Part shown: positions 6,134 to 48,416 of the stretch, piece after piece
How the letters are laid out: each line of letters begins with the position of its first letter
Position numbering within the stretch: position 1 is the stretch's first letter
Source of the DNA: Euglena gracilis
Lineage: Eukaryota
Assembly: GCA_039621445.1 (NCBI GenBank)
Contig: CP154954.1
Coordinates: 24,254,954 to 24,318,953, forward strand
Length of the DNA: 64,000 bases
Direction: 5' to 3'
Made by a program: the position numbers and the translations under genes
Notes under the pieces: model-generated
Seen by the model: the letters and a program-made list of their open reading frames with translations, nothing else
Databases searched by the model: none
What the model was told of the DNA's origin: nothing

Positions 6134-7725
6134 TTTGCCTCCCCCAGGGGGGGGGTGCTCTTGAGAGTGGGTGGGGTCATCGGGACCCCACACGGGTTGG
6201 CATGGAACCCACATGGGTCAATTCAGCTCGGCCTGGCTTGAATTTTTTCAAGGGTTTTTTTTTTGAAAAATTTTGGGGTTTTTTTGGTGTGGGGTCGTGA
6301 GTGAGTGGGTTGGGCTGGGGAAAAGTACCTCAAGGGGCCATTCAGTGAATCTACAGTCCTGCTGCCTTTCCATCTGCTGCCCTTGGCCAGGAACGGGGCG
6401 TGCATTGGGTTTTCATTCAGGACATGGGAATCCTCCAGGGAACACAGGGCAATCCTACAGGAGTTAGGTAACCTGTTTCATGGTCCCTCGTGATATTTTA
6501 TGGGGATAATTGTATCTCTTTTGGGCAGGGTTCACTGCATTATCAATAGCAACAAAGGCAACATATTCGTCGTTCTTCCGAACCTCAAAACAAAATGGTG
6601 GAAAATGATCTCCATTTCCGTTGCCATCTGCCCCCCCCCATGCCGCCCTGAATTTGTCACTGTGCAGTCAGTGATGCCTTGACCCTCCCTCCCGCCCTGT
6701 GCGTGACTCCTCCCTCTGACCTGTGGCTACCGATTGTTGGGCGGGCGCCTCCGTTGTGTTGCGCTGTAGACTGTCTCATTCTGATGGAGTCTGAGTGCCA
6801 ACCACTCACCACTTGGTGCCAAGGTGGTGGATTGGCGAAGAAAGGAGGCGCCAGTTCATAAACGCCATTAAGCAGGTCTTCCAAAGGCAATGCCTGGCGG
6901 GGGGGGGGGGGGCAATGAATGAATGCAATCGCACGTTGCAACGGCTGCCTCACTGTGTAGGACAAATCATCATCTGTGGCCCCCTCCATCAGCCCAGTGC
7001 TGTGTTTCTGGAGAGCTGAGTAGAAGGCCAGCCAGCTGGCAAAATAAACTTGCTTTTGCAGAAGTATCCGTGTTCGTAGACGGAATTCTGTGGAAATCTG
7101 AAGCAGTTACAAGCGGTTATTGCTGACTTGCAATCCAAAGATGTGTACGTGTCCGTCGAGGGGCCAGTGTTCTTCATGTGGTCGAACATTGTTTGCTGTG
7201 GTTTTCTCTCATTGTCAATGGAGACCCAAATTTTTGATTTTTGGGTACCCCCAAAGATTTTGGGCCGATTTTGGGACCCCCCCCCCCCAAATTGGGACCC
7301 CCCCCAAATTGGGACCCCCCCCCCAAATACAAAAACAAAACCCAACCTTGTTTGAAGAATTCCTTATTTCAACTCAGTTTTCTTCTGAGACAAAAAAGTG
7401 TGAATTGTCATTTTTGCATTTTTTTTGTCAAATTGCATTTTTTTTGCTAGTACAAGGGCAACCCCCCCCCCCGTCCGTGAGCTTGGCCCAGGGCATCGTT
7501 GAAGGTAAGGCCAGGGTGCCAACCTTAGGGGGGCCAAGTCTGCATGTTAAGAATTTTGGCGGCCATGTGCAAAAGGCGAAAGGCTAACTTTAGGGGGGCC
7601 GAGGTTGTATGAAAGGAGGAGGGGGGGCCAAGCGCCTTGGGGGGCCACCGGGCCTTCCCATACAGCCCCCCAGGGCGATTGCATACCGTTTCATTGTCCC
7701 CCGACCCTCCCCCCAGAGGCGCCCG

Positions 7726-10283: not shown

Positions 10284-10769
10284 GTCCCAGGCCATACAGT
10301 TGCTAGACCATTGCCAGTGTGCGCTACACCATGGGTCATTAACCCCCCCAAAATAAGACCCCCCCCCCCCGGGCCGATCGAGCAAAAATACAGACCCCCC
10401 AAAAATAAGATCCCCCTGACCCGAAGCACCGAAGGCGGTGAAAATTTTACTTGAAAAGTTACCAAAAAACCCCCAAGAATGATGAAATTTCGCACAAAAA
10501 ATGATGAAATTTTTGAAGTGTAAAAAACATGCTAAATGTCAGCTCTCACCAATTTACACATGGTGCGGAGCGCCAAAGGAAAAATTTTAATGCTTTTGGG
10601 AACCTAAAAATGATTTTTTTTTCCGGGCCCGGGTCGGTCATAACCCCCCCCCCCCTGGAGGTTTCCAGCAATGTTGGGCTCGTTTTTGACTTGGGCTGCC
10701 GCCTTTCCCATCGGGCACTGTGGTTTCCCCAGGGTAGGGTGCACGCGATTGACGGACCACCCTCTGGTC

Positions 10770-13601: not shown

Positions 13602-14206
13602 CAGGCCATACAATTGCTAGACCATTGCCAGTGTGCGTTACACCATGGGTCATTACCCCCCCCCCCCCAAAATAAGACCCCCCCCCCCTGGGCCGATCGA
13701 GCAAAAATCCAAAAGTAAGACCCCCCCAAAATAAGATCCCCCTGACCCGAAGTGCCGAAGGCGGTGAAAATTTTCCTTGAAAAGCTACCAAAAAAACACC
13801 CAATTTCGCACAAAAAATGGTGAAATTTCAAACATTTTCGGATTTTGAAGTGTAACAAACATGCTAAATGTCAGCTCTCACCAATTTACACATGGTGCGA
13901 AGCGCCAAAGGAAAATTTTTAATGCTTTTGGGAACCTAAAAAATAATTTTTTTTCGGTCGGTCAAGAAAAAAATCCAAAAATAGGACCCCCCCCTGGAGG
14001 TTTCCAGCAACGGACCCAAAAATAAGACCCGGGTTTTATTTTTGTGGGGGGGTTTACACCATGGGTGGGCGAATGCCTGAGTGTTCCCCTTATCAGGGTC
14101 CCTCCCCGAGACAAAGGCAGAAAAGTATGTTGGGCTCTTTTTTTGACTTGGTCTGCCGCCTTTCCCATGGGGCACTGTGGCTTCCCCAGGGTAGGGTGCA
14201 CGCGAT
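13602..14206 (+). repeat. Diverged direct copy of 10288-10749 (MITE plus its flanks)
   Basis: Both copies start caggccataca.ttgctagaccattgccagtgtgcg and end gggcactgtgg.ttccccagggtagggtgcacgcgat. Confidence 0.85.
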
Positions 14207-20333: not shown

Positions 20334-21521
20334 ATCCTACCCAGTTTGACCCCTTCGCGCGTGAATAATTCGGGCCTGGCAGGGAGTTGGGGGTCAAACC
20401 CAGGTGATTCGGTAACTAGAAATCCAGTCGCTCGCGACTGAAAAAAAAATTCCGGGAACGGGGCCGGGATCATGGTGATAATCCGACGGTTCTCCTGGTG
20501 GCCCCGACCCGGGGGGGGGGAGGGGGGGGTCGAGGGGGGGGTTTCGCCGGGTGTAAGCTTCGCTCTTATCCATAAAGGGAGCGACCCCCGGGGGGGTAGC
20601 GGCTCATTTCCAGCCAGCAGCCTTTTTGCCAGCCGGAGGCTGAACCCCCCCCGGGGGCCCTTCAGAAGCTCCTGACCTTGGCCGATGTGCTAACCCCCCG
20701 CCAAAATAACCCCCCTGACGATGCGTAGCACTGGGACGGTGAAAAATGTCCCTGATAAATCAACAAAAAGCCCAATCACAAAAAGGTCACAAAATGATGA
20801 AATTTCAAAGATTTTCCAATTTTTGAAGTGCAAAAAAACCATGGTAAATGTCAATTTATACCAGTACATACATGGCGCGAAGCGCCGAAGGAAGAATCTT
20901 AGTGTTTTTGGGAACCTGAAAAATGATGATTTTTTCAGGCCCCGGTCGACCAAGAGAAAAGCTAAAAATAAAACTTCCCAAAATACGACCCCACTGGAGG
21001 TTTCCAGCAACCCCCATAAAAGACCCAGGTCTCATTTTGGGGGGTTCCTTTGGGACACCCCCCCCAGGGTGGGGTCGACCCCACCTTGAAATTCAGGCTG
21101 GCAATCTGGGCTAGCAGCATCCCCAGTGGGCGTTGCCGTGGCTGGGGTGGGGACAAAATTGGAATAAATTTTTTCTTCCTCTTTTTTAAATTATAAAAAA
21201 TTAAAATTCTGGTGATTTTCTGACATTTTTGAAGCCACCATTCTTTCCTTCATGTTAGATTTTCCTTGTTCAAGGTCCCAACCAAGGAAATTTTTAAAAA
21301 GTTTGGATCCCGGTGGGGGAGGGGGTAGGGTGGGTGGGTCTGCCAGACACTTTCCCGGCCTGACGGCTGTCACCGCCCACCGCCTGGGTGGTTCCCCCTT
21401 GAGAGCCCCTGCCGCAGACGGGGGTTTTGACCATGGCCATTTCCGCTTTTTTTTTGACCCCAAAGTGATCCCCAAAAATGTGGGTCCCCTGAACCGCCCC
21501 TCCCCCCCCCGCCCGAAGGTA
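20334..21521 (+). repeat. Left copy of a long direct repeat (right copy ~38925-39770), including a subfamily-2 unit end
   Basis: Same module order in both copies. The left copy has ~440 bp of extra MITE-related sequence after gatgcgtagcactgggac. Confidence 0.85.
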
Positions 21522-21538
21522 AATCCCAACCAAATATT

Positions 21539-24500
21539 ACCAGGGTGTGACGTAGAGCTGAGCTCTTTGGGATACCACCCCAGCCCGGCCCGGCGCCCGG
21601 CGCGGCCCGGCGGCCCGGCCCGGCGGCACGGCCCGGCGGCACGGCCCGGCGGCCCGGCCGGCGGCCCGGCGGCCCGGCGGCCCAGCCCAGCGGCCCGGCG
21701 GCCCGGCCGGCGGCCCGGCGGCCCGGCGGCCCGGCCGGCGGCCCGGTGGCCCGGCCGGCGGCCCGGCGGCCCGGCAGCCCAGCGGCCCGGCCGGCGGCCC
21801 CGCGGCTCGGCGGCCCGACCCGGCTGGCGGGTCGAAAAACGCTCATTTTCGGCTCAAAAACAGGTTTTAAGGGTCCTGGAGGCCAAAAAACGTTGTTCTG
21901 GGCAAAATTTTTTTTTGATTTTTTCGACTTTTTTTGGCCCAGTTTTGACCCAAATTCAATGGGTTGGTGGCCCAAAACGGGGCGCTGGAGGGTCGAAAAA
22001 CGCTCATTTTTGGCTCGAAAACACTTTTTTGGGGTGCGGGAGGTCAAAAATCATGGTTTTGGGCAAAATTTTTTTGCAAATTTTTTCGACTTTTTGACCC
22101 AAAAATGGCTAAGTCCACCGGCCAGGGGGGCAGGGGGGGGGTCCGGGTCGGAAAAAACTTTTTCGCCCAAAAACACTTTTTTTTGATGTTCTGAAGTGAA
22201 TAAAAGTGTTTTTGAGCGAAAAAATTTTTTCCAAAATTTTGGGTCCCGACCTGCCACCCGACCCGCCCTCACTGCGCCTGCAGGGGTCCCCGAATACCCA
22301 AAACTGGCCCAAAATCGCGCAACCAGGCCCCGGGAACCCCAAAAAACGGTCAAAACCCCCCCCTAAACCTAATGTTTGACCCCCGGTTTGGGTCCCAACT
22401 CCTCGTCTAGCCCGAGATACGGCCAATTTACGGTTTCGGGCCCCGAAATGGCCAGAACTGGCAAAACTAGCCCAAAACCCCCAAAACGGCCATATCTCGG
22501 GCTAGGCGAGGAGTTGGCCCAAACTGCGCATACCGATCGATCGGGCGTCCCAAAGTTGTGGAAGGATGTCCTCTTCACTTTTTCTCAACTCCGCAGCATT
22601 TTCGAGATATTTTGAATTTTTCGATTTTTGACCCCAAAATCACCCTGCAATTTCCCCGAAAAAAAAAACGGTAGACAACTTTTTTGCTCGGGCCACATCT
22701 CCGGACTGGCGGGGAGTTGCGGGTAACCTAAGGGCTCTGGAGGTACTAGGGATCGTCCCCTGACCTATGGGCCATTCACTTTGGGGGCCACGAAATCCAG
22801 TCACATCGATAATCCCGGGGTTTCCGGACCTACCCAGGGGGGGGGGGGGGGTGGGGGTCCGACCCGCCTCCGGCCCCGGTGGTAAGCTTCGCTCTTACTC
22901 TAAAGAGATAAGAGCTCAGCGACCAGGGTGTGACGTAGAGCTGAGCTCTTTGGGAGACCACCCCAGTCCGGCCGGCGCCCGGCCCGGTCCGGACCGGCCC
23001 GGCCGGCGGCCTGGCGGCCCGGCGGCCCGGCCATGCCGGCGGCCCGGCGGCCCGGCGGCCCGGCGGCCCGGCGGCCCGGCGGCCCGGCAGCCCGGCTGGT
23101 GGCCCGGCGGCCCGGGCCCGGCGGCCTGGCCCGGCCGGCGGCCCGGCCCCGGCCCGGACCGGCCCGGCAGCCCGGCCCGGCGAGGCCGGCGGCCCGGCGA
23201 GGCCGGCGGCCCGGCCCGTCCCGGCCGGCGGCCCGGCGGCCCGGCCCGGCCCGGCCGGCGGCCTGGCGGCCCGGCCCGGCCCGGCCCGGCCGGCGGCCCG
23301 TGGAGCTCTTTTGACTGAAATGCAAGAGTTTTGTGCCCAAAACGGGGCGCCGGGGGTTGGAAAACGTCCATTTTCGGCTCAAAAAAACACCGTTTCCGGG
23401 TCCGGGAGGCCAAAAAACATCGTTTCGGGCGAAAATAATTTTCGAATTTTTTCGACTTTTTTCGACTTTTCGACCGAAAATCAATGGGTTTGCGGCCCAA
23501 AACGTGGCGCCGGCGGGTCGAAAAACGCTTGTTTTCGGCTCAAAAACAGTTTTTCTGGGTCTGGGAGGCCAAAAAACATTGTTTCGGGCAAATTTTTTTT
23601 TGGATTTTGTTCGACTTTTTTGACCTGGTTTTGACCCAAAGTCAATGGGTTGGCAGCCCAAAACGGGGCGCTGGAAGGTCGAAAAACGCTCGTTTTCGGC
23701 GGGAGGTCAAAAAACATGGTTTTGGGCGAAAATTTTTTTTGACTTTTTTTGACTTTTTGACCCAAAAATGGCTAAGTCCACCGGCCAGGGGGGGCGGGCC
23801 CCAGCCAGGGGGGGGGGGGCATGCGGGGGGGGGGGTCCGGGTCGGTAAAATTTTTTTCGCTCAAAAACACTTTTTTTGATGTTCTGAAGTGAAAAAAAGT
23901 GTTTTTGAGCGAAAAAAAATTTCAGAATTTTGGGTCCCGACCTGCCACCCGACCCCCCGCCCAGCCGCCCTCACGCCGCCCGGTGGGGTTCCCGAATACC
24001 CAAATCTGCCCCAAATTCGCACAACCAGACCCCGGGAACCCCAAAAAACGGTCAAAACACCCCCCTAAACCAATGATTGACCCCCTGGTTTGGGTCCCAA
24101 CTCCCCGTCTAGCCCGAGATACGGCCAATTTACGGTTTCGGGCCCCGAAATGGCCAAAACTGGCAAAACTAGCCCAAAAACCCCCAAAACGGCCGTATCT
24201 CGGGCTAGGCGAGGAGTTGGCCCAAACCGCGCATACCGATCGATAGGGCGTTCCAAGGTCGTCAAATTAGGTCGCCATCACTTTTCCTCAACTCCGCAGC
24301 GTTTTCGAGATATTTTGAATTTTTCGATTTTTGGACCCCCAGCCGGCGGCCCTCGAACCCCCGCAGGGGTCCCCGAATACCCAAAAATGGCCCAAAATCG
24401 CACAACCAGACCCCGGGAACCCCAAAAAACGGTCTAAACCCCCCCTAAACCTAATGATTGACCCTCTGGTTTCGGTTCCAACTCCCCATCTAGCCCGAAA

Positions 24501-26505
24501 TACGGGCAAATCGGTTTCGGGCCCCGAACGGGCCCGAAATGGCCGAAACTGGCCAAACTGGCCCAAAACCACAAAACGGCCGTATCTCGGGCTAGGCGGG
24601 GAGTTGGCCCAAACCGCGCATACCGATCGATCGGGCGTCCCAAAGTTGTGGAACGACGTCCTCATTACTTTTTCTCAACTCCGCGGCGTTTTCGAGATAT
24701 TTTGAAATTTTCGATTTTTTGACCCCAAAATGACCCTGCAATTTCCCCGGAAAAAAAAACGGTAGACAACTTTTTTGCTTGGGCCATATCTCCGGAGTGG
24801 CGGAGAGTTGCGGGTAACCGAAGGGCTCTGGAGGTACTAGGGATCGTCCCCTAACCTATAGGCCATTCACTTTGGGGGCCCGGAAATCCAATCACATCGA
24901 TAATCCCGGGGTTTCCGGACCTACCCAGGGGGGGGGGGGGCGGGGTGGGGGTCCGACCCGCCTCCGGCCCCGGTGGTAAGCTTCGCTCTTACTCTAAAGA
25001 GATAAGAGCTCAGCGACCAGGGTGTGACGTAGAGCTGAGCTCTTTGGGAGACCACTCCGGCCCGGCCCGGGAAAAACACTCATTTTCGGCTCAAAAACAG
25101 TTTTTCCGGGTCCGGGAGGGCAAAAAACGTCGTTTCGGGCAAAAAATTTTTTCGATTTTTTTCGACTTTTTTGACCCGGGGTTGACCTAAAGTCAATGGG
25201 TTGGCGGCCCAAAGCGGGGCGCTGGCGGGTCGAAAAACGTTCATTTTTGGCTCGAAAACATTTTTGTCGGGTCCGGGTGGTCAAAAAACATGGTTTTGGG
25301 CAAAATTTTTTTGATTTTTTTTGACTTTTTTGACCCAAAAATGGCTAAGTCCACCGGACCCAGCCAGGCGGGGGGGGCATGGGGGGGGGGTCCGGGTCGG
25401 AAAATTTTTTTTCGCTCAAAAACACTTTTTTTGATGTTATGAAGTGAAAAAAAGTATTTTTGAGCCAAAAAATTTTTTTCAAAATTTTGGGTCCCGACCT
25501 GCCACCCGACCCCCCGTCGCCCAGCCGCCCTCACGCCGCCCGCAGGGGTCCCCGAATACCCAAAACTGGCCCAAAATCGCACAACCAGACCCCGGGAACC
25601 CCAAAAAACGGTCAACCCCCCCCCCTAAACCTAATGATTGACCCCTGGTTTGGGTCCCAACTCCTCGTCTAGCCCGACGGCCAATTTACGGTTTCGGGCC
25701 CGAACAGGCCCGAAATGGCCAAAACTGGCCCAAAACCCCCAAAACGGCCATATCTCGGGCTAGGCGAGGAGTTGGCCCAAACCGCGCATAGCGATCGATA
25801 GGGCGTCCAAAAGTTGTGGAGGGATGTCCTCTTTACTTTTCCTCAACTCCACAGCGTTTTCGAGATATTTTGAATTTTTTGACTTTTTGATCCCAGCCCG
25901 GTAGCCCTCGAACCCCTGCAGGGGTCCCCGAATACCCAAAAATGGCCCAAAATCGCACAACCAGACCCCGGGAACCCCAAAAAAACGGTCAACCCCCCCC
26001 CCCCTAAACCTAATGATTGACCCCCTGGTTTGGGTTCCAACTCCTCGTCCAGCCCGAGATACGGGCAAATTACGGTTTCGGGCCCCGAACGGGCCCGAAA
26101 CGGCCAAAACTGGCCAAACTGGCCCAAAACCACAAAACGGCCATATCTCGGGCTAGGCGAGGAGTTGGCCCAAACCGCGCATACCGATCGATCGGGCGTC
26201 CCAAAGTTGTGGAAGGACGTCCTCTTCACTTTTTCTCAACCCCGCAGCGTTTTCGAGATATTTTGAAATTTTCGATTTTTTGACCCCAAAATGACCCTGC
26301 AATTTTCCGGAAAAAAAAAACGGTAGACAACTTTTTTGCTCGGGCCATATCTCCGGACTGGCGGGGAGTTGCGGGTAACCTAAAGGCTCCAGAGATACTA
26401 GGGATCGTCCCCTAACCTATGGGCTTTTCACTTTGGGGGCCACAAAATCCAGTCACATCGATAATCCCGGGGTTTCCGGACCTACCCGGGGGGGGGGGGG
26501 GGGGG

Positions 26506-26537
<32 letters not shown>

Positions 26538-29261
26538 CGGGGCCCCCCGTCCCCGGTGGTAAGCTTCGCTCTTACTCTAAAGAGATAAGAGCTCAGCGAC
26601 CAGGGTGTGACGTAGAGCTGAGCTCTTTGGGAGACCACCCCTGCCCGGCCCGGCGGCCCGGCCCGTCCGGCGGCTCGGCGTCCCGGCCAGGCCGGCCCGG
26701 CGGCCCGGGGCCCCCGTCGACGGCCCGCCCGGCGGCCCTCCGGTCCCCCGGAACCCGGCCCTTTTCTGGATCACGACTCCGTGGTTTTTGGTCAAAAAAC
26801 ATTTTTTTTTTTTGATTCTTTTTTTCGGGGGTTGGAGGTGCTTTTGGGTGAAATTTTTTTTGAATTTTTTTGACTTTTTTGATCCAAAATGGCTAAGTCC
26901 ACTGGCCAGGGGCGGGCCCCCAGCCAGCCAGGGGGGGGGGCTCGGAAGGGCATGGGGGGTGCGGGTCGGAAATTTCGCGGGCCCAGTGGTGGGTCTTTAA
27001 CATTGATGTTCTGAATGAAAAAAAGTGTTTTTGAGCGAAAAATTTTTTTTTTCAAAATTTTGGGTCCCGACCTGCCACCCCGCCCCCCCCCCTACGCTCG
27101 GGGCCCCGCCCCCCCGACCCAATGCTAACGCCGCCCCCGATCCAACCCCCTCCCCCCTCCCCCCCCCCAAACCCATCCCCAACCCCCATGGACCCCCCCG
27201 GGGGGAGTGGGGAAAACTCAACGCAAAATTGGGGTCCAGTTGTAACCGCTCACACGGGCGTGGGGCGTGCCCCAACCCGAACCCCTGGCCAAAAGTCTCA
27301 CAAGGTGGACGGGCAAAACCTTCAATTATCGTTTTCGATTATTTTCGATTTTGGGTTTTGACCCAACCTGGCTCCCCCCTATATCCCGCCGTCACCTCCT
27401 CCACGGGGTGGCCGAACTTGGCAGAAATTTAGGCGGTTTGGGGTCCCTCATCTGGTTGGACCCCACCCATGGGTGGCCCCGAACGCCCCCCCGTGGGTGC
27501 CCTTCACTCCAAAAAAGGCCAATTGTGCGGGTTGGGGGGAGGGAAAAACGGATTGGACCCCCAAACTGGGTCCCAAACTCCCTCATAATCCAACCTTTGC
27601 CCCCAAAAACATTTTGGATCGACCAAATGGGGTCCCCTCCCCCTCTCCCGCCTGCCGAAAACCCTCGACGGGTGGGTCCCCGAATACCCAAAAATGGCCC
27701 AAAATCCCACAACCCGACCCCGGGAAACCCAAAAAACGGTCAAAAACTAAACCATGATTGACCCCCTGGTTTGGGCTCCAACTCCCGTCTAGCCGAGATA
27801 CGGCAAATTACGGTTCCGGGCCCGAACGGGCCCGAAATGGCCAGAACTGTCAAAACTGGCCCAAAACCCCAAAACGGCCTTATCTCCGGCTAGGCGGGGA
27901 GTTGGCCCAAACCGCGCATACCGATCGATCTGGCGTCCCAAAGTTGTGGAATGACGTCCTCTTTACTTTTTGTCAATTCCGCGGTGTTTTCGAGTTATTT
28001 TGCATTTTTATATTTTTTGCCCCCAAAATGACCGTGCGATTTCCCCGGAAAAAAAAAACGGTAGACAACTTTTTTGCTCGGGCCATATCTCCGGACTGGC
28101 GGGGAGTTACGGGTAACCGAAGTGCTCTGGAGAAACTAGGGAACCTCTCCTAACCTATAGGCTATTCACTTTGGGGGAAATCCAATCACATCGATAATCC
28201 TCGGGTGCCCCGACCTACCCAGGGGGGGGGGCGGGGTGGGGGAGGGGGGGCCTTCGCTCTTACTCTAAAGAGATAAGAGCTCAGCGACCAGGGTGTGACG
28301 TAGAGCTGAGCTCTTTGGGGGACCATTCCGGCCCGGCCTGCGAAAAACGCTCATTTTTGGCCCAAAAACATGTTTTCTGGATCCGGGAGACCATAAAACA
28401 TCGTTTTGGGCTGAAAAATTTTTTCGATATTTTTCGACTTTTTTGACCCGGTTTTGACCCAAAGTCAATGGGTTGGCGGACCAAAAAGGGGCCCTGGCGG
28501 GTCGAAAAACGCTCATTTTCAGCTCAAAAACACTTTTTCCGGGTCCGGGAGGCCAAAAAACATGGTTTTGGGCGAAAAATTTTTTTTCGATTTTTTTCGA
28601 CTTTTTTGACCCGGTTTTGACCCAAAGTCAATGGGTTGGCGAACCAAAACGGGGCGCTGGCGGGTCGAAAAACGCTCATTTTCGGCCTAAAAACACTTTT
28701 TCCGGGTCCGGGAGGCCCAAAAACATGGTTTTGGGCGAAAAAATTTTTTTTCGATTTTTTTCGACTGTTTGGCCCGAAAACGGCTAAGTCGGACAGTGGG
28801 AAAAGTGTACAAAACGGCCATTTGGACCGAAAAACGGCCATATCTCGGGCCAGGCGGGGAGTTGGCCCAAACTGCGCATACCGGTGGATAGGGCGTCCCA
28901 AAGTTGTGGAATGAGGTACTCTTTAGTTTTTCTCAACTCCCCAGCGTTTTCGAGATATTTTGAATTTTTCGATTTTTTGACCCCAAAAATGACCCCTTTT
29001 GCCGGTCCAACAAAATTTCTTTGGAAAAAAAACGGTAGACAACTTTTTTGCTCGGGCCAGATCTCCGGCGTGGCGCGGAGTTGCGGGCAACCTAAGGGCT
29101 CTGGACAAACTAGGGACCGTCTCCTAACCTATAGGCTATTAACCTTTCGGGTCCCGAAATCCAATCACATCGATAATCCTCGGGGGCCCGAGCCTACTCA
29201 GGGGGGGGGGGGCGGGGGGGCGGGGGGGGGGGGGCGGGGGGGGGGGGGGGGGGGGGGGGGG
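21539..29261 (+). mobile_element. Head-to-tail array of five non-coding modular units: 21539-22921, 22922-25015, 25016-26598, 26599-28286, 28287-~29261 (truncated)
   Basis: Each unit starts ACCAGGGTGTGACGTAGAGCTGAGCTCTTTGGG. The four complete units end CTTCGCTCTTACTCTAAAGAGATAAGAGCTCAGCG, and the four junctions are identical. Module order is conserved. Confidence 0.9.
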
Positions 29262-29263
29262 TA

Positions 29264-30975
29264 ATCCCTTTATGGGTAAGAGCGAAGCTTACCACCGGCG
29301 AAACCACCCCCCCCCCCCGACCCCCCCCCCCTCCCCCCCCGCCCCCCCCGGGTCGGGGCCACCTCGGGAACCGACGGATTATCACCATGATCCCGGCCCC
29401 GTTCCCGGATTTTTTTTTTTTCAGTCGCGAGCGACTGGATTCGTAGTTTCCGAAGCACCTGGGTTTGACCCCCAACTCCCCGCCAGGTCCGAGTTATTCA
29501 CGCGCGAAGGGGTCCAAACTGGGTAGGATCGGTCCGCCCCCCCCCCCCCCTTTGGACTCTGCCATTTCGGCCAAAAAAATGTCAATTTTCAAAATATCTC
29601 CAAAATGAAGCCAAATCAAAGGAAATGTCCGGAGACCTAAATTGAAGCCCTTGGAACGCCCCATCCACCGGTATTTTGATTTCCCCCCAACTCCCCGCCT
29701 AGCCCGAGATACGGCCGTTTTCGGCCCGGATGGCCGTTTTGTACACTTTTCCCTCTGTTCGACTTGGCCGTTTTCGGGGGGTGGGGGGTCAAAAAATCGA
29801 TGTTTTCAAAATTTATCGAAAATGATGCAAAATCAAAGGAAATGTCCGGAGACCTAAATTGAAGCCCTTGGAACGTCCCATCTACCGGTATTTTGGTTTC
29901 CCCGCAACTCCCCGCCCAGCCCGAGATACGGGCGTTTTTTTGGCCAATTTGGGCCATTTCAGGCCATTTTGTACACTTTTCCCTCTGTTCGACTTAGCCG
30001 TTTTCCGCCAAAAAAATCAAGAAAAATCGGAAAATCTTTTTTTGCCCGAAACGATGTTTTTTGGCCTCCCGGACCCGGAAAAACTGTTTTTGAGCCGAAA
30101 ACGAGCGTTTTTCGACCCGCCAGCGCCCCGTTTTGGGCCGCCGACCCATTGACTTTGGGTCAAAACCGGGTCGAAAAAGTCGAAAAAAATCGAAACCCGA
30201 AACGATGTTTTTTGGCCTCCCGGACCCAGAAAAACTGTTTTTGAGCCGAAAACGAGCGTTTTTCGACCCGCCAGCGCCCCGTTTTGGGCCGCCGACCCAT
30301 TGACTTTGGGTCAAAACCGGGTCGAAAAAGTCGAAGAAAATCCAAAAATTTTTTTTTGCCCGAAACGATGTTTTTTGGCCTCCCGGACCGTGAAAAACTG
30401 TTTTTGAGCCGAAAACGAGCGTTTTTCGACCCGCCAGCGCCCCGTTTTGGGCCGCCGACCCATTGACTTTGGGTCAAAACCGGGTCGAAAAAGTCGAAAA
30501 AAATCCAAAAAAATTTTTTTGCCCGAAACGATGTTTTTTGGCCTCCCGGACCCGGAAAAACTGTTTTTGAGCCGAAAACGAGCGTTTTTCGACTCGCCAG
30601 CGCCCCGTTTTGGGCCGCCGACCCATTGACTTTGGGTCAAAACCGGGTCGAAAAAGTCGAAAAAAATCCAAAAATTTTTTTTGCCCGAAACGATGTTTTT
30701 TGGTTCTCGGACCCGGAAAAACTGTTTTTGAGCCGAGACTGAGTGTTTTTCGACCCGTTTTGGGTGGCCGACCTATTGACTCTGGGTCAAAACCGGGTCA
30801 AAAAAGTGGAAAAAATCGAAAAAATTTTTTTTGCCCGAAACGATGTTTTTGGGTCTCCCGGACCCGGAAGAACTGTTTTCGAGCCGAAAATGAGCGTTTT
30901 TCGACTTCGACCCACCGGCCCCCTGTTTCTGGCACAAAACCCATGGATTTCAGGCAAAAGAGCTCCATGGAGTGG
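29264..30975 (-). mobile_element. Inverted subfamily-2 unit (CCCATAAAGGG hairpin variant)
   Basis: atccctttatgggtaagagcgaagcttacc is the reverse complement of the unit end seen at 39143-39172. The body is homologous to 38368-39184. Confidence 0.85.
30044..30905. repeat. Tandem ~163-bp repeat (about 5 copies) with regularly spaced A/T tracts
   Basis: cccgaaacgatgtttttt recurs at ~30045, 30196, 30359, 30522, 30684 and 30834. Confidence 0.9.
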
Positions 30976-31105
30976 GCCGGTATGTATGGAGGGGTCAATG
31001 AAGGGGTGGGTGCGCGCTTATTAAGACCTCAGCACTATTCAAAACCTGGTTTCGGGGGGGGGGTGGTAAGCTTCGCTCTTACTCTAAAGAGATAAGAGCT
31101 CAGCG

Positions 31106-32670
31106 CCCCCCCCCCCCCAAATAATACCCCCCCTTTGGTGTCTGACTTTGGCTGCCGAAATAATACTCCCCCCCCCCCGGTTTCGGGCCGAAGGCCCGAA
31201 TTTTTACCTGAAAATGAAGGTAAAAATCACAATCTCTGACAACATATTACGAAAAAAATCGATTCTTCTGGCTCATCAGACCTCCAAAAAATGGTAAATT
31301 TCACAAGAAAGTGCAAAAAATGACCCCAAAGGGGGGTTTTGGGTGCTATTTTGGGTTTTACGGGACTTCGAAAAATTTCGAAAATTTTGGAAAAAATAAT
31401 ACCCCCCCTCCCCAAATAATACCCCCCCCCTCGGGCCGGGACTTCGGGCGAAAAAAATAATACCCCGGGGGGTATTGTTTGGGGGGGGTATACCCCTGGA
31501 TGGATGGGTTGGAACCCCCCCAACTCCTCCGCGGCCTTAAAAAATGGGGGCTTGGAGCCCATTGAGCACCTCCGACCCGTGTCCCAAGCCTTCTGGCCTA
31601 TCCCACAGTGCCACGTTGCTCTGCTATTGTGGAAACGCCGACGAGTGCCATGATTGCGGCGCCCCCTGATTGTGGAAGTGTCTACGCGGCCAGGCACCTG
31701 TGTCTAAAACAGGGCCTAAAATGACTTCCCAACCCTTGTTAATCCTTGTCAATAACACTTTCGGGAATATTGCTGTGTCTCGGACAAGGGCTGGGTGGGA
31801 ATGTAAAATGAAATAACTGCCTGAATTAATTGTAATCCACAGGTATTGTCATGAGTAGCAATAATGGCACGAAACTCGGAACACACGTGTCGAGCATCCA
31901 CAAAGATTGCTTTTTGCAGCTTCGTGTTTTTTTTAATCAAATTCTTCCGACAATGTAATGATTTTGTACAAAAACAGCAATTGTGGTGTAATCATCGTTG
32001 ATTCTATCCTTCTTTGTAGTGCGTGCTTTCTTAAAAAAGTCTCCTGAAAAATGGGTGTTTTGAAAAATCGCTCCAGAGTTTTTGAATTTCAGAGCAAAGG
32101 TGTCTAAATTGGTGGTCTCCAAATTCAGCGGAGATGACCAGGTCTCCCCCCCCCCCCCCCCCGCCGACCCCTCCCTGCGGGGTCAGGTTTTGGGGCAGGG
32201 AGTGTAGCGTTGTGCCCCCCCCGCCGAGCGCTTGGCCCCCCTCCTCCTCACATGCAAACCTGGCCGCCCTGAAGCTGACTTCAGGAAAATATTTGACTGT
32301 TGGCTTGCGCTGGACCCAAACCGCACCCCCCCCCCACCGGGGATTATGCGCAGCAGAATCTCTTCTGTCAGGATTTTCCCTTCCCACGTACGATTTTTGA
32401 ACAGAGCCTCACCTAGATTTGATCAGTTTTCATGAATACGTCCCTGCTTCCTTTGACATGGGTTTCTGATTGAAGACTTGTGAACGTCTGATGAATCATT
32501 GGACTTTCAGAACAACCCAGTTTTGGTCAAGAAAATTTTTTGGTGGAAACAGCCCAAGGGTGTGAAAATGGGTGTCTGCACCCGACCCCTCTGGCTGCAA
32601 TGCCGTGGGGGTTCCAGCGTGTCGTCCATGTTGGCCCCTCCTGTAGCTCTGCAGTGACTCATGCAGCGCC
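31106..32670 (+). repeat. ~1.55 kb direct duplication (second copy ~34165-35700)
   Basis: Near-identical sequence; each copy starts immediately after a unit end (...GCTCAGCG) at a C tract. Confidence 0.9.
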
Positions 32671-34163
32671 GAAGCTTACCACCCCGGCGACGGGGGGGTC
32701 CAACCCCCCCCGCCCCCCCCCCCCCGCCCCCCCCGCCCCCCCCCCCCGCGCCCCCCCGCCCCCCCCCCCCTGGGTGCAATGGCCCCCGAGGATTATCGAT
32801 GTGATTGGATTTCCGGGCCCCCAAAGTGAATAGCCTATAGGTTAGGAGATGGTCCCTAGTTTCTCCAGAGCCCTTCGGTTACCCGTAACTCCCCGCCAGC
32901 CCGGAGATATGGCCCGAGCAAAAAAGTTGTCTACCGTTTTTTTTTCCGGGGAAATTGCAGGGTGATTTTGGGGTCAAAAAATCGAAAAATTCAAAATATC
33001 TCGAAAACGCTGGGGAGTTGACAAAAAGCGAAGAGGACGTCGTTCCACAACTTTGGGACGCCCGATCGATCGGTATGCGCGGTTTGGGCCAACTCCTCGC
33101 CTAGCCCGAGATACGGCCGTTTTGTGGTTTTGGGCCAGTTTTGCCAGTTTTGGCCATTTCGGGCCTATACGGGGCCCGAAACCGTAATTTGCCCGTATCT
33201 CGGGCTAGACGGGGAGTTGGAACCCAAACCAGGGGGTCAATACTTAGGTTTAGGGGGGGGTTTTGACCGTTTTTTGGGGTTCCCGGGGCCTGGTTGTGCC
33301 ATTTTGGGCCAGTTTTGGGTATTCGGGGACCACCGGCGCGTCAGGGCGGTGGCTGGGGGGGGTCGGGAACAGTGCAGGTCGGGACCCAAAATTTTTTTTC
33401 GCTCAAAAACACTTTTTTTCACTTCAGAACATCAAAAAAAGTGTTTTTGAGCGAAAAAAATTTTCCGACCCGAACCCCCCCCATGCCCCCCCCCCCTGGC
33501 TGGGGCCCGCCCCCTGACCGGTGGACATTTTTGGGTCAAAAGCCGAAAAAATTCGAAAATTTTTTTTTTGACCAAAACCATGATTTTTGACCTCCCGGAC
33601 CCGAAAAAAGTGTTTTCGAGCCAAAAATGAGCGTTTTTCGACCCGCCGGCGCCCCGTTTTGGGCCGCCAACCCATTGACTTTGGGTCAAAACCGGGTCAA
33701 AAAGGTCGAAAAAAATCGAAATTTTTTTTTGCCCCAAAGCGATGTTTTTTGGCCTCCCGGACCCGGAAAGCCTGTGTTTGAGCCGAAAATGAGCGTTTTT
33801 CGACCCGCCAGCGCCCCGTTTTGGGCCACCAACCCATGACTTCAGGTCAAAACCGGTCAAAAAAGTCGACAAGAATTGAAAAAAAAAATTTGGGCCCAAA
33901 ACCGTGTTTTTTGGCCTCCCTGACCCAGAAAAAAATGTTTTTGAGCCGAAAATGAGCGTTTTTCCCGGGACGGGCCGGGGTGGTCTCCCAAAGAGCTCAG
34001 CTCTACGTCACACCCTGGTCACTTTGGGGGCCCAGAAATCCAATCACATCGATAATCCTCGGGTGCCCCGACCTACCCAGAGGGGGGGGGCGGGGGGGGT
34101 CGGACCCCCCAGTCGCCGGGGTGGTAAGCTTCGCTCTTACTCTAAAGAGATAAGAGCTCAGCG
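32671..34163. mobile_element. Inverted near-full unit (32671-34019) joined to a short forward copy of the unit end (34020-34163)
   Basis: ...acgtcacaccctggt at 34005-34019 is the reversed unit start. 32671-32829 and 34020-34132 are mutually inverted. Confidence 0.85.
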
Positions 34164-37068
34164 ACCCCCCCCCAAATAATACCCCCCCCAAATAATACCC
34201 CCCCCTTTGTCTGACTTTGGCGACCGAAGGCCCGAATTTTTACCTGAAAATGAAGGTAAAAATCACAATCTCTGACAACATATTACGAAAAAAATCGATT
34301 CTTCTGGCTCATCAGACCTCCAAAAAATGGTAAATTTCACAAGAAAGTGCAAAAAATGACCCCAAAGGGGGGTTTTGGGTGCTATTTTGGGTTTTACGGG
34401 ACTTCGAAAAATTTCGAAAATTTTGGAAAAAATAATACCCCCCCCCCCCCAAATAATACCCCCCCCCCTCGGGCCGGGACTTCGGGCGAAAAAATAATAC
34501 CCCGGGGGGTATTGTTTGGGGGGGGGTTACCCCTGGATGGATGGGTTGGAACCCCCCCAACTCCTCCGCGGCCTTAAAAAATGGGGGCTTGGAGCCCATT
34601 GAGCACCTCCGACCCGTGTCCCAAGCCTTCTGGCCTATCCCACAGTGCCACGTTGCTCTGCTATTGTGGAAACGCCGACGAGTGCCATGATTGCGGCGCC
34701 CCCTGATTGTGGAAGTGGCTACGCGGCCAGGCACCTGTGTCTAAAACAGGGCCTAAAATGACTTCCCAACCCTTGTTAATCCTTGTCAATAACACTTTCG
34801 GGAATATTGCTGTGTCTCGGACAAGGGCTGGGTGGGAATGGAAAATGAAATAACTGCCTGAATTAATTGTAATACACAGGTATTGACATGAGTGGCAAAA
34901 ATGGCACGAAACTCGGAACACACGCGTAGAGCATCCACAAAGATTGCTTTTTGCAGCTTCGTGTTTTTTTAATCAAATTCTTCCGACAATGTAATGATTT
35001 TGTACAAAAACAGCAATTGTGGTGTAATCATCGTTGATTCTATCCTTCTTTGTAGTGCGTGCTTTCTTAAAAAAGTCTCCTGAGAAATGGGTGTTTTGAA
35101 AGATCGCTCCAGAGTTTTTGAATTTCAGAACAAAGGTGTCTAAATTGGTGGTCTCCAAATTCAGCGGAGATGACCAGGTCTCCCCCCCCCCCCCCCCCCG
35201 CCGACCCCTCCCTGTGGGGTCAGGTTTTGGGGCAGGGAGTGTAGCGTTGTGCACCCCCCGAGCGCTGGCCCCCCTCGTCCTCACATGCGATCCTGTCCTC
35301 CCTGAAGTTGACTTCAGGAAAATTTTGACTGTGCTTGCGCTTCCACCCCCCCCCCCAAACCGCCCCACCCCCCCCCGGGATTATGTGCAGCAGAATCTCT
35401 TCTGTCAGGATTCCCCTTCCACGGATTTTGAACAGAGCCTCACCTAGATTTGATCAGTTTTCATGAATACGTCCCTGCTTGCTGTGACATGGGTTTCTGA
35501 TTGAAGACTTGTGAACGTCTTATGAATCATTGGACTTCAGAACAACCCCCGTTTGGGTCAAGAAAAATGGTGGAAAACAGCCCAAGGGGGTGAATATGGG
35601 TGTCTGCACCCGGCCCCTCGGGCTGCAAATATGCGGCGCCGCGGCCCGGTTTCCGGGCTCAGCTGGATTGCAATTTTGACCGTGACTCATGCACGCTTGC
35701 GCTGAGTCCTCAAAAGTGCAACTTATGGCGCTGGATGCGCGGTTGGCATTGTTAAATGCCAACCCCCCCGCAGGCTGATTCCCCCCACCTTCCTTCCTTT
35801 GCGAGTGGAATCAGGTTTGGGGGGAAGGGTATAGGGTGCCTCGGCCTGCAGGCCAGAGGCCAGCTCCTGCGCTTTGTTCTAAGCTCCCCCTGCTTCCTCC
35901 ATGCCACCCCATCCGGCCAGCGCATGACCGACAGTGTCCACCAAGCGCTGCTCAGCCCCCCTGAGGGATTTCCCCCCCCCCACCCCCTGGAGCATGTTGT
36001 CCCTCCTGGACCATAGTTCATGCCGGCACTGATGCGCCGACCAACCTGGCCCTCACCGGCCCCCATTGACTGGCAATGACCCCCGTCAGCCAGACCTTTC
36101 CAGCGCCATCTGATGACGCTTTTGCACCCAAAATGACCGGCGTGAATCGTCCCGTAGTTTTGATCATCATTAAGTCTTTGACAGAAAATTTTTTGTTTGT
36201 TTTCATGACCAAAAAAGCCCAATGAGCACCCTCATGGCCATCTCAGGCCGCACATGGCCATGTGGATCTGTACATGAGTCATCTGGCCGCGGAATAACGC
36301 TCCCCCACCCTTCATGCCCCCTATCGCGGGTCCCGAGCTCGCGAGGCTTATAAGGGGTCCATGGGTGTCGGGATGGGTGAGGGGGGGGTCGGCCAAGCTT
36401 CCATCTTACCCATTGGCTCTTTTTCCTCTACGACATTTTGGTTCGGCACAGAGCCCACTGCCCCTGAGCGCCCTGGGGGTCAAGCTTCATTGAGGTTTTT
36501 GAGCAAATAGGGGCCCCTGACCGGGGATGGTGTTCACCATAACCACCTGAAGACCTCAGCCCAATTGTGGGCCTCCCCCATGATGGCTCTGACCGTTTTT
36601 TTTTGTGATCCTGGGCAAGCCCACCCTTGCCTTCATGATGATTGTTCAGCCAAGGTACTGAAGCTGCCACCATGATTGTGGCCATCATGTTGGCCCCTGC
36701 CCAATGGCCTGACCTTGTCGCCGACCTGGGTGCGCCATGAGGTCGAAAATGGCCACTAGTTTTTTGACAATAACCGCACCCCCTCCGATGGGTTGGAAAC
36801 CAAGCCTATTGAGCCTTTTTTATTCATGCACCCCATATGACCTGTCTGCGCACAAATGGCCGAAACACATGCGGTCTGTGGCCACGATGGGCCCATTTTC
36901 CCGAGGCAAGTGGAAACGGGCCAGGATTTGTGTTTTTTCTATTTTTTTGTTTTCGGACACATGGCATGGTGAATGAAAAATATAACTGCATTGTACACGT
37001 GGGGCATCATGAGGCATGAAATGGCCCACTTGGAAACCCATGATCCACATTTCGATTGTGTTTTTTTG

Positions 37069-38367
37069 CATCATGGGTCATGATGGGCATCATGGGTCAT
37101 GATGGGCATCATTGGTCAGGATGGCCATCATGGGTCATGATGGCCATCATGGGTCATGATGGCCATCGTGGGTCATGATGGGCATCATGGGTCATGATGG
37201 CCACCGTGGGTCATGATGGGCATCATGGGTCATGATGGCCATCATGGGTCATGATGAGCATCATGGTCATGATGGCCATCATGGGTCATGATGGGCATCA
37301 TGGGTCGTGATGGGCATCATTGGTCATGATGGCCATCATTGGTCATGCTGGGCATCATGGGTCATGATGGGCATCATGGGTCATGATGGCCATCATGGGT
37401 CATGATGAGCATCATGGGTCATGATGGCCATCATGGGTCATGATGGGCATCATGGGTCGTGATGGGCATCATTGGTCATGATGGCCATCATTGGTCATGA
37501 TGGGCATCATTGGTCATGATGGCCATCATGGATCATGATGGGCATCATGGGTCATGATGGCCATCATGGGTCATGATGGCCATCATTGGTCATGATGGCC
37601 ATCATGGATCATGGTGGGCATCATTGGTCATGATGGCCACCATTGGCTATGATAAGCATCATGGGTCATGATGGGCATCATTGGTCATGATGGCCATCAT
37701 GGGTCGTGATGGGCATCATGGGTCATGATGGCCATCATTGGTCATGATGGCCATCATTGGTCATGATGGCCATCATGGATCATGGTGGGCATCATTGGTC
37801 ATGATGGCCACCATTGGCTATGATAAGCATCATGGGTCATGATGGCCATCATGGGTCATGATGGGCATCATGGATCATGATGGGCATCATTGGTCATGAT
37901 GGCCATCATTGGTCATGATGGGCATCATTGGTCATGATGGCCATCATGGATCATGATGGTCATCATGGGTCATGATGGCCATCATGGGTCATGATGGCCA
38001 TCATGGATCATGATGGGCATCATTGGTCATGATGGCCATCATGGGTCATGATGGGCATCATGGTTCATGATGGGCATCATTGGTCATGATGGCCATCATT
38101 GGTCATGATGGCCATCATGGATCATGATGGGCATCATTGGTCATGATGGCCACCATGGGTCATGATGGCCATCATGGGTCATGATGGCCATCATGGGTCA
38201 TGATGGGCATCGTGGGTCATGATGGGCATTATTGGTCATGATGGCCATCATTGGTCATGATGGCCATCATGGATCATGATGGACATCATTGGTCATGATG
38301 GCCACCATGGGTCATGATGGCCATCATGGATCATGATGGGCATCATGGCCATCACGGGCCATGATGG
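37069..38367. repeat. 19-bp palindromic minisatellite, about 68 copies (CATCATGGGTCATGATGG[C/G])
   Basis: Uninterrupted tandem array. Each monomer is CATCATG-NNN-CATGATG plus 2 nt. Confidence 0.95.
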
Positions 38368-39184
38368 TCGAAAAAAGCTCATTTTCGGCTCGAAAACCCT
38401 TTTTCCGGGTCCGGGAGGCCAAGAAGCAAGGTTTTGGGTAAAATTTTTTTTTCGATATTTTTCGCCTTTTTTGGCCGAAAACGGCTAAGTCCACCAGTGG
38501 AAAAAGTGTACAAAATGGCCAAAATCGGCCGAAAAACGGCCGTATCTCGGGCTACGCGAACGGTTGCGGGGAAATCAAAAATACCGGTAGATGGAGTGTT
38601 CCAAGGGTTTCAAATTAGGTCTCCGGACATTTCCTTTGATTTTGCTTCATTTTGAGAAATTTTGAAAATATTGATTTTTGGCCGAATTTTGGCCGAAAAC
38701 GTACAAAATGGCCCGTTGGCCGAAAACGGGCTTATCTCGGGCCAGGCGGGGAGTTGCGGGGAAATCAAAATACCAGCAGATGGGGCGTTCCAAGGGCTTC
38801 AAATTAGGTCACCAGACATTTCGTTTGATTTGGCTTCATTTTGGAGATATTTTGAAAAGTGACATTTTTTGGCCGAAATGGCAGAGTCCAAAGGGGGGGG
38901 CTTATCCAGGGGGGGGGGGTGGGCCAATCCTACCCAGTTTGGACCCCTTCGCGGGTGAATAACTCGGGCCTGGCAGGGAGTTGGGGCTCAAACCCAGGTG
39001 GTTCGGAAACTCGGAATCCAGTCGCTCGCGACTGAAATTTTTTTTTTCGGGAACGGGGCCGGGATCATGGTGATAATCCGTCGGTTCCCGAGGTGGCCCT
39101 GAGGGGGGGGGAGGGGTGGGTTTGGGGGGGGTTTCCCCCAGGGGTAAGCTTCGCTCTTACCCATAAAGGGATAAGAGCTCAGCG
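38368..39184 (+). mobile_element. Forward, start-truncated subfamily-2 unit
   Basis: Ends GGTAAGCTTCGCTCTTACCCATAAAGGGATAAGAGCTCAGCG, followed by ACCCCCCCC. Confidence 0.85.
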
Positions 39185-48041: not shown

Positions 48042-48416
48042 TACCCCCCCCAAATGTAAAGCCCCCCCCCCCCCCCAGGGGGTTTGGTTTTGCCGCCAAA
48101 TTGTAAAGCCCCCCCCCCCCTATGTGGAGCTGGACGATGGTGCCATTCAGGAAAAAGTAGAAAAAAATTTGGTGGATACGACCTTTTTTTCACCAGAAAT
48201 GCCCCATTTTGGATAAAAATTGCACATTTTTGGGAAAATAGGAGGTACACAACGAAACATTTGGCATAGAATTGGTATTTGGCCACAATTGAGGCCGCCG
48301 AAGATCATAGAGACCACCCAAAAAAAGTTTGATCCCCCCAAATATAAAGCCCCCCCTGAGGGTCTTGAAACCCCGTCCAAATATAAAGCTGGGGGGGCTT
48401 TATATTTGGGGGGGTT
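48042..48416. mobile_element. MITE with AAATRTAAAGCCCCC inverted repeats (relatives at ~45447-45820 and ~55365-55400)
   Basis: ccccaaatgtaaagccccc at the left end and gggggctttatatttgggg at the right end. Confidence 0.65.

Follow-up and report, generated by a model that had tools for sequence, protein, structure and literature searches.

Joined ends of a probable non-autonomous Helitron2/Helentron-type transposon in a tandem array of Euglena gracilis

Introduction

In the published descriptions compared here, rolling-circle transposons of the Helitron2/Helentron group (HLE2) carry short inverted repeats at asymmetric positions near their two ends. The 5' repeat of Helitron2 is 0-2 bp away from the end and folds into a 5' hairpin with letters further downstream, the 5' letter is preferably T, and the 3' repeat is located about 20-30 bp from the 3' end; compensatory changes are also reported (PMC3627910). 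For the same elements, Bao and Jurka (2013) put forward the hypothesis that the 5' hairpin is destroyed when the two repeats pair with each other, and that this pairing determines where replication ends (PMC3627910). Elements of the HINE/DINE-1 type are described with subterminal inverted repeats (subTIRs) of 11-15 bp and an inverted repeat (IR) nested in the 5' subTIR, with a microsatellite, central satellite-like repeats and a short 3' module, and with TT as the target (Thomas et al., 2014, PMC4067079; Vojvoda Zeljko et al., 2020, PMC7492417). For HLE2 elements, insertion between two T's is given as the rule (HELIANO paper, PMC11417382), and joined ends and tandem copies have been reported, with tandem insertions cited in several organisms (Chellapan et al., 2016, PMC5148889). 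Here, a junction between repeat units is analysed that lies at positions 22878-22962 of a stretch of 64,000 nt of the Euglena gracilis genome (assembly GCA_039621445.1, contig CP154954.1, positions 24,254,954 to 24,318,953; this whole stretch is called the window below). It probably represents the joint between adjacent copies of a non-autonomous, HINE/DINE-1-like rolling-circle transposon of the Helitron2/Helentron group.

The names "tail" and "head" for the two ends of a unit, as read on the plus strand, are those of a first-pass annotation of the window that was made from its letters alone. That annotation had also pointed out a likeness to the ends of Helentron, DINE-1 and Helitron2 elements, which is borne out by the anatomy of the junction as compared with the definitions published for these groups. 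The inverted repeat and the hairpin are probably the ordinary end signals of such a family rather than the mark of a new RNA or element class.

Structure and conservation of the junction

The hairpin, the 11-nt inverted repeat and the words GGTGGT and ACCACC, which the first-pass annotation had read at this junction, are present letter by letter exactly where it had placed them (Table 1). The joint between tail and head, 22921/22922, can be placed to within 1 nt, and solo ends elsewhere in the window show that no extra letters lie between the two. The 11-mer AAGAGCTCAGC overlaps the 3' arm of the tail hairpin, and GCTGAGCTCTT, its exact reverse complement at a distance of 18 nt into the next unit, is itself partly self-complementary and overlaps the mini-hairpin of the head. 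The tail hairpin does exist, but it is longer than had been described and forms a 35-nt imperfect palindrome with 13 predicted pairs (22886-22920), which in Helitron2 terms is the 5' hairpin, composed of the 5' subTIR and its complementary IR. The proposed clamp of GGTGGT and ACCACC fared less well: both halves are present here, but they are not conserved, being lost at 28286 and, for the tail half, at 39143. Roughly estimated, a complementarity of 6 nt in a stretch of 85 nt is at about chance level. The 11-mer was counted, together with its complement, at 15 places in the window when at most one mismatch was allowed, versus 0.41 occurrences expected, and for a perfect inverted repeat of 11 nt with a spacer of at most 40 nt the chance expectation is 0.52 per 64 kb in block shuffles. 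A 30-nt string of the tail is found in six exact plus-strand copies (at 22891, 24985, 26568, 28256, 31075 and 34133) and in none of 100 shuffles, with the head 30 nt after the tail string in four of the six copies. One further candidate, AAGACCTCAGC at 36550, was taken as a chance match, because its surroundings lack similarity to the family; one-mismatch matches are expected at 0.41 per window.

The junction is the first of four joints (the others are 25015/25016, 26598/26599 and 28286/28287) in a head-to-tail array of five units that belong to one repeat family. U1 to U4 measure 1383, 2094, 1583 and 1688 nt, and the lengths of all five range from about 1.0 to 2.1 kb; U5 ends early, inside a G-run, and has no tail. 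On the plus strand, a unit consists of the 41-nt head, a (CCGGC)n microsatellite, tandem repeats of 161-163 bp, a core that contains a 387-bp duplication, a G-run, and the 44-nt tail. The microsatellite varies in length between units and is absent from U3 and U5, and the 161-163-bp repeats number one to three per unit. The identity between units amounts to 83-88% overall (BLAST of U3 against the window) and to 86-95% over the last 331 ungapped columns. Among the 150 scanned open reading frames (ORFs), out of 204 of at least 110 aa, none matched Pfam, and therefore the units and their surroundings appear to be non-coding; the other 54 ORFs lie mostly in the array and other simple-repeat stretches.

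When the four junctions are aligned, all 68 of 68 columns across the joint are invariant (CTTCGCTC...CTCTTTGGG). Upstream of the joint, 273 of 331 ungapped columns are invariant (82.5%) and the longest invariant run is 29 columns; the probability of a 68-column run by chance is about 2e-6. Because the block at the joint is invariant while the columns upstream are not, the ends of the units appear to be constrained. The six tails are identical, as are the six heads over their first 32 nt, and also the solo ends keep the letters of the junction (44/44 in the solo tails, 41/41 and 40/41 in the solo heads). The first-pass annotation had declared beforehand that a junction conserved no better than the unit interior would speak against it; the opposite was found.

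Mobility and copy number of the family

The tail borders on unrelated upstream sequence at 31062 and on unrelated downstream sequence at 31105, 34163 and 39184. The head follows unrelated sequence at 21539, and at 34019 it lies inverted within another copy. With such differing neighbours, the tail therefore behaves as the terminus of a mobile element. Four public sequencing runs of the same organism, one of DNA and three of RNA, were aligned to the 1.76 kb around the second junction (24727-26487). In the DNA run, 123,609 contig records fall on this short stretch, and the summed depth reaches 2.4-3.0 million in the two junction bins versus 0.2 million in the bin just upstream. Loose ends were found just behind 25018 in all four runs (215, 7, 10 and 15 records), where the records run on into C-rich sequence, and 116 records of the DNA run have loose ends before 24968. 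Loose ends at these two positions therefore indicate an end module of about 48 nt that is common to many copies with different neighbours, and in the public reads this module often has no head after it. Among the 40 read variants listed, out of 227, none falls into 24947-25055, against some 2.5 for an even spread; with 40 of 227 variants covered, this difference is too weak to count.

The tandem order of the units, the extreme abundance of the family and its satellite-like 163-bp repeats would also fit a plain satellite or a segmental tandem duplication without mobility, with gene conversion or a host function maintaining the conserved block. However, end modules occur alone, in both orientations and beside unrelated sequence, and the loose ends seen genome-wide lie exactly at the module borders. 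Moreover, U1 to U4 differ in length (1383-2094 nt) and by 5-14% in sequence, but their ends are identical. An immobile satellite is thus an improbable explanation.

Proposed assignment to the Helitron2/Helentron group

By the Helitron2 convention, the names of the two ends are probably reversed: the tail would be the 5' end of the element, and the sense strand would be the minus strand of the window. Read in this direction, a unit starts with (T)C-GCTGAGCTCTT, the 5' subterminal inverted repeat at 1-2 nt from the end, which pairs with TAAGAGC 11 nt downstream to give a 7-bp complementary IR and, with it, the 5' hairpin. The unit finishes with ...AAGAGCTCAGC-TCTACGTCACACCCTGG, so that the 3' subterminal repeat has 18 nt behind it, and between the ends follow a homopolymer run, the core, the 163-bp tandem repeats and a (GCCGG)n microsatellite. 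A T stands behind the 3' end in both solo cases, one of which is an insertion at a known host site, CCAT^TCAC, and before CGCTGAG in two of three solo cases, with G-runs preceding. Three copies (U5, 29264-31053 and 32670-34019) are damaged at the 5' end but intact at the 3' end.

Several of the features by which HLE2 elements are recognized can be traced in this arrangement. Their end repeats have 8-16 bp; here, the inverted repeat has 11 bp and is perfect at all four junctions. Its placement is asymmetric, with distances of 1-2 nt and 18 nt to the respective ends, as judged from three solo tails and two solo heads, and the 5' hairpin makes use of the 5' repeat, with 13 pairs of which one shows a compensatory change. 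An internal microsatellite and central tandem repeats, which are typical of HINE-like elements though not obligatory, are present as well. The hairpin beside one of the ends and the inverted repeat that they share would also be compatible with a canonical Helitron (HLE1) in the orientation of the first-pass annotation, or with a cut-and-paste miniature inverted-repeat transposable element (MITE) with terminal inverted repeats. However, in this orientation the units lack the 5'-TC...CTRR-3' ends and the A^T site of HLE1 (the tail reads ...CTCAGCG(A) and the head (A)CCAGGG), and the inverted repeat links the two ends, which argues against HLE1. Its asymmetric position (1-2 nt vs 18 nt) also speaks against these alternatives, and the one nested site has no duplicated flank as a MITE would leave it. 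Both identities are therefore highly improbable.

Several observations weigh against the assignment to the Helitron2/Helentron group or against the orientation proposed for it. The fragments at 31062 and 34120, which stem from one duplicated locus, keep only the end called 5' here and fit the earlier orientation better. Behind the 3' repeat, no separate stem-loop was found in the 41-nt module, in which a weak 5-bp AGAGC/GCTCT pairing overlaps the repeat itself and which folds no better than shuffled sequence (z -0.3 and -0.7). The distance of this repeat from the end, 18 nt, is smaller than the values given in the papers compared, about 20-30 bp for Helitron2 and 38-60 bp for the HINEs of mites. 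The 5' flank is G-rich rather than T-rich, and the solo 5' end at 31105 lacks the T. The microsatellite adjoins the 3' module, unlike in the oyster HINEs as described, where it belongs to the 5' module. A Rep/helicase partner was not found within the window by Pfam (150 of 204 ORFs scanned). The boundaries rest on two solo heads and three solo tails and have an ambiguity of 1 nt. Finally, no further copies were obtained from viral contigs by an exact 30-mer search (no loci), and no true ones from metagenome contigs with a tail pattern that left the loop free; the two metagenome loci returned, L001 and L002, were rejected as chance matches, being AT-rich and unrelated outside the pattern.

Predicted competing folds at the joined ends

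The 85 nt of the junction were folded as single-stranded DNA (ssDNA) and as RNA, for both strands. An 11-bp helix between tail and head is formed in the minimum-energy folds of the plus strand and in all four centroids, with DNA as well as RNA parameters, and the minimum-energy folds of the minus strand keep the tail and head hairpins instead. The folds of the whole junction have z-scores of -2.5 to -2.9, and the ssDNA fold of the tail palindrome, at -7.9 kcal/mol, has z-scores of -2.2 and -2.6. The head alone yields -4.2 kcal/mol, the joined 60 nt -12.7 and the joined 85 nt -15.3. Because both the end-to-end helix and the terminal hairpin use TAAGAGC, they are mutually exclusive, and the joined form (-12.7 kcal/mol) and the separate hairpins (-12.1 kcal/mol) are nearly isoenergetic. 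The two competing folds proposed by the first-pass annotation are thus sustained by the predictions for both strands. This exclusivity follows directly from the architecture of the family, and the competition between end-to-end pairing and the terminal hairpin has been in print as a hypothesis since 2013 (PMC3627910).

A different matter is whether the pairing serves as an obligatory signal. According to this proposal, pairing of the 11-mers requires joined ends, as in a circle or concatemer, the joint then lies in the 19-nt loop of an 11-bp stem, and this structure is an obligatory cleavage substrate that acts as a switch against the terminal hairpin. The presence of the helix in the plus-strand minimum-energy folds and in the centroids of both strands, the small energy difference between the joined and separate forms and the invariance, in six of six heads, of the 18 nt that separate the subterminal repeat from the end and would form most of the loop, would be in line with such a signal, as would the similar pairing idea proposed for Helitron2 (PMC3627910). 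However, the 11-mers of intact copies contain no substitution and hence show no co-variation, the binding of one protein to the same motif at both ends would lead equally to inverted repeats, the additional clamp is not conserved, and the pairing on ssDNA is a prediction from folding. An obligatory role is therefore rather doubtful, and it would refine the assignment to the Helitron2/Helentron group instead of excluding it. That the helix actually forms and signals cleavage is rather unlikely.

Co-variation could in principle contribute to this question, but within the window the 11-mers give no such signal, because they are invariant in all intact copies. The lone divergent head (GCTGAGGTCTT at 31000-31053, minus strand) has no intact partner, as the tail of its own copy is without the 11-mer. 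Even if co-variation of the 11-mers were seen, it would be expected also from the same protein-binding motif at both ends. A single compensatory change was observed, in one of the 13 hairpin pairs: in the inner stem, UA of the common type corresponds to CG of the B-type tail (39149-39184). This pair supports the hairpin, not the long-range helix.

Transcription across the junction

The first-pass annotation had also considered an unclassified self-processing RNA; such an RNA, self-cleaving or otherwise self-processing, would be encoded by the junction and transcribed from the tandem array. The stability of the RNA fold relative to shuffles (z -2.5 and -2.9) and the low-level transcription of both strands are consistent with this option. 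On the other side, Rfam gave no match at gathering scores in the whole 64-kb window, and the four matches within 22700-23100 had E-values of at least 5.6, far under the gathering scores, and included no small self-cleaving ribozyme. In the three RNA runs, which contributed 255, 168 and 579 reads to the aligned 1.76 kb on both strands, reads cross the joint in both directions without a pile-up of molecule starts or ends, although the depth per bin and direction at the joint (4-8, 4-7 and 10-20) is too low to exclude a rare event. Furthermore, transposon ends at the DNA level explain the same letters, and solo copies exist without the partner half. A self-processing RNA is thus weakly refuted by these low-depth data and, all evidence considered, has a negligible probability. 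The highest RNA coverage of the stretch in all three runs, on both strands, was recorded in the 163-bp repeat (25081-25257), with about 150 reads per direction in the size-fractionated run.

Array formation and proposed mechanism

By analogy with what is established for HUH-type rolling-circle transposases, a Rep/helicase transposase encoded elsewhere in the genome would recognize the end signals on ssDNA, nick at the 5' end, unwind and peel off one strand, and then recognize the 3' end and join it to the 5' end. The tandem joint of tail and head corresponds precisely in form to such a joined intermediate. The array more likely arose by successive insertions of different family members, each beside a resident end, than as one recent concatemer. 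Such insertions are favoured because the ends of adjacent units are identical despite differences of 5-14% in sequence and differences in structure, and one old concatemer is disfavoured because its ends would have decayed too.

A more far-reaching idea is that the joined ends rebuild an origin-like stem-loop, with an 11-bp stem and the joint at the edge of the invariant 19-nt loop, and that this is the real substrate of the Rep nuclease, with the fold switch determining if an end counts as a start or as a joined junction. We consider this unlikely. If it were true, every joint of the array would be a ready-made origin and terminator, which would help to explain the extreme copy number and would provide the Helitron2 pairing hypothesis of 2013 with a directly testable substrate.

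Other copies and repeats in the window

The copies outside the array are listed in Table 1 together with the parts of the junction. The inverted head that ends at 34019 adjoins the final 144 nt of a plus-strand copy (...CCAT^TCACTTT). The right flank of the solo tail at 31062-31105 is a paralogue of the locus at 34163, and both lie in a segmental duplication of about 3 kb (29900-31620 vs 32900-34660, at a spacing of 3036-3037 nt). An inverted copy, a solo tail and a shared downstream sequence are found in the duplicated segments, whose right flanks are 82-97% identical. The variant tail of the inverted copy 29264-31053 (29264-29296, minus strand) has no 11-mer. There, about 12 nt have been replaced, and the tail at 20553-20580 has a 10-nt deletion, so that the 11-mer stretch was lost twice independently; this could reflect instability linked to the hairpin, or a footprint of processing.

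The region 37069-38348, just before a 163-bp-type repeat and the B-type tail ending at 39184, consists of 67 copies of a partly palindromic 19-bp satellite, CATCATGGGTCATGATGGC, possibly the central repeat of a variant element; no head of a B-type element was found upstream of it. An internal inverted repeat of about 22 nt (TTTTCGCTCAAAAACACTTTTT and its complement, with a spacer of about 18 nt) is kept by several copies (23854-23916, 22168-22214 and 33396-33458). Homopolymer runs of G or C, 43-67 nt long, occur inside or beside elements at 26488-26542, 29201-29261, 29307-29349 and 32704-32770. C-runs that alternate with words like AAATAAGA and AAATAATA were noted at 705-796, 7279-7328, 10340-10420, 13660-13750, 31106-31180, 34164-34206 and 48340-48420. 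This motif stands directly behind the solo tails at 31105 and 34163, the genome-wide consensus of the loose ends behind the tail is also C-rich, and the motif is perhaps a favoured insertion target or belongs to the end of a different abundant repeat. Geminivirus origins contain a nonanucleotide at the nick site, and the flank and first head letters at 21531-21541 (AAATATT/AC) resemble it, including the position of the boundary; this likeness, a single case, was judged a coincidence.

Table 1. Positions of the junction parts, array units and further copies in the window
Feature	Position	Strand	Description
Junction	22878-22962	+	44-nt tail (to 22921) joined directly to 41-nt head (from 22922)
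Hairpin arms	22891-22897, 22909-22915	+	GCTCTTA, TAAGAGC
Terminal hairpin	22886-22920	+	Imperfect palindrome GCT-TC-GCTCTTA-CTC...GAG-A-TAAGAGC-TC-AGC
11-mer AAGAGCTCAGC	22910-22920	+	Terminal copy of the inverted repeat; distance to the element end 1-2 nt
11-mer GCTGAGCTCTT	22940-22950	+	Subterminal copy, 18 nt from the other element end
Head mini-hairpin	22937-22949	+	5 bp, AGAGC-TGA-GCTCT
Clamp halves	22878-22883, 22957-22962	+	GGTGGT, ACCACC
Array of five units, one non-coding repeat family	21539-29261	probably -	From head/tail positions, junction alignments and BLAST
Units	U1 21539-22921, U2 22922-25015, U3 25016-26598, U4 26599-28286, U5 28287-~29261		
Second junction	24972-25056	+	Identical; joint 25015/25016; public reads aligned here
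Third junction	26555-26639	+	Identical; joint 26598/26599
Fourth junction	28252-28325	+	Joint 28286/28287; core identical, GGTGGT and ACCACC both gone
(CCGGC)n arrays	21586-21817, 22968-23300, 26643-26738		
161-163-bp repeats	23335-23700, 28341-28770		
Solo head opening the array	21539-21579	+	40/41 letters match; preceded by ...AAATATT
Inverted copy, variant subfamily	29264-31053	-	Divergent head with GCTGAGGTCTT (31000-31053)
Solo tail	31062-31105	+	44/44 letters; upstream unrelated, C-run downstream
Inverted copy	32670-34019	-	Head 33979-34019, 41/41 letters; other end a 14-nt stub, 32670-32683
Final 144 nt of a plus-strand copy	34020-34163	+	Intact solo tail 34120-34163, then A and C-rich motif
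B-type variant tail	39143-39184	+	Loop CCCATAAAGGG; 11-mer intact; source of the lone compensatory pair
B-type tail	20553-20580	+	10-nt deletion removing TAAGAGCTCA

Implications and comparison with known systems

About 18 kb of the window (20.5-39.2 kb) can be understood as a nest of one HLE2-type family of non-autonomous rolling-circle elements, which is extremely abundant in its host and whose ends are now defined to within 1 nt. Although the finding reveals neither a new class of elements nor a new RNA, the defined ends help repeat annotation and the search for an autonomous partner. In the literature compared here, end recognition by Helitron2 and Helentron elements has not been worked out experimentally. 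A compact junction of 60-85 nt with perfectly conserved ends, of which natural joined-end copies exist, offers a substrate on which this recognition can be tested.

In the IS200/IS605 transposons and at the origins of rolling-circle replicons, HUH-type nucleases read hairpins of ssDNA and cut beside or within them. These are prokaryotic or viral systems, and the parallel is drawn as an analogy without a claim of homology. Joined ends are reportedly also found in the circular intermediates of Helraiser. Unlike in such joined-end Helitrons, the joints described here are chromosomal and lie between diverged units. They resemble the joined ends and tandem copies of FoHeli1 (PMC5148889) in being precise joints of 3' end to 5' end.

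With Helitron2, the family shares asymmetric terminal inverted repeats within the published range of 8-15 bp and a 5' hairpin that uses the 5' repeat (PMC3627910), and, as is described for Helitron2/HLE2, a T at the 5' end, here in two of three solo cases, and a compensatory change in the hairpin between related elements (PMC3627910; PMC11417382). Unlike here, where none is evident, a 3' hairpin follows the 3' repeat of Helitron2, which is placed about 20-30 bp from the end in the published account. The likeness to HLE2 is one of end anatomy. Helentrons are defined by the endonuclease domain of the autonomous partner, and the copies of the present family in the window appear to be non-coding.

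Among the systems compared, HINE/DINE-1-like Helentrons (PMC4067079) such as Cg_HINE of the oyster (PMC7492417) offer a detailed parallel. The family differs from HINE as described by a 3' subTIR that is just 18 nt from the end and lacks a separate 3' palindrome behind it, by the microsatellite at the 3' module and by the G-runs before the 5' end. As in these elements, however, the subTIRs have 11 bp and are partly palindromic, the 5' one lies 1-2 nt from the end, and a complementary IR is nested in it, here of 7 bp after a spacer of 11 nt. Also the microsatellite itself, the satellite-like central repeats, a 3' module of about 41-55 nt, the T beside most of the solo ends and the very high copy number are features that the family has in common with HINE.

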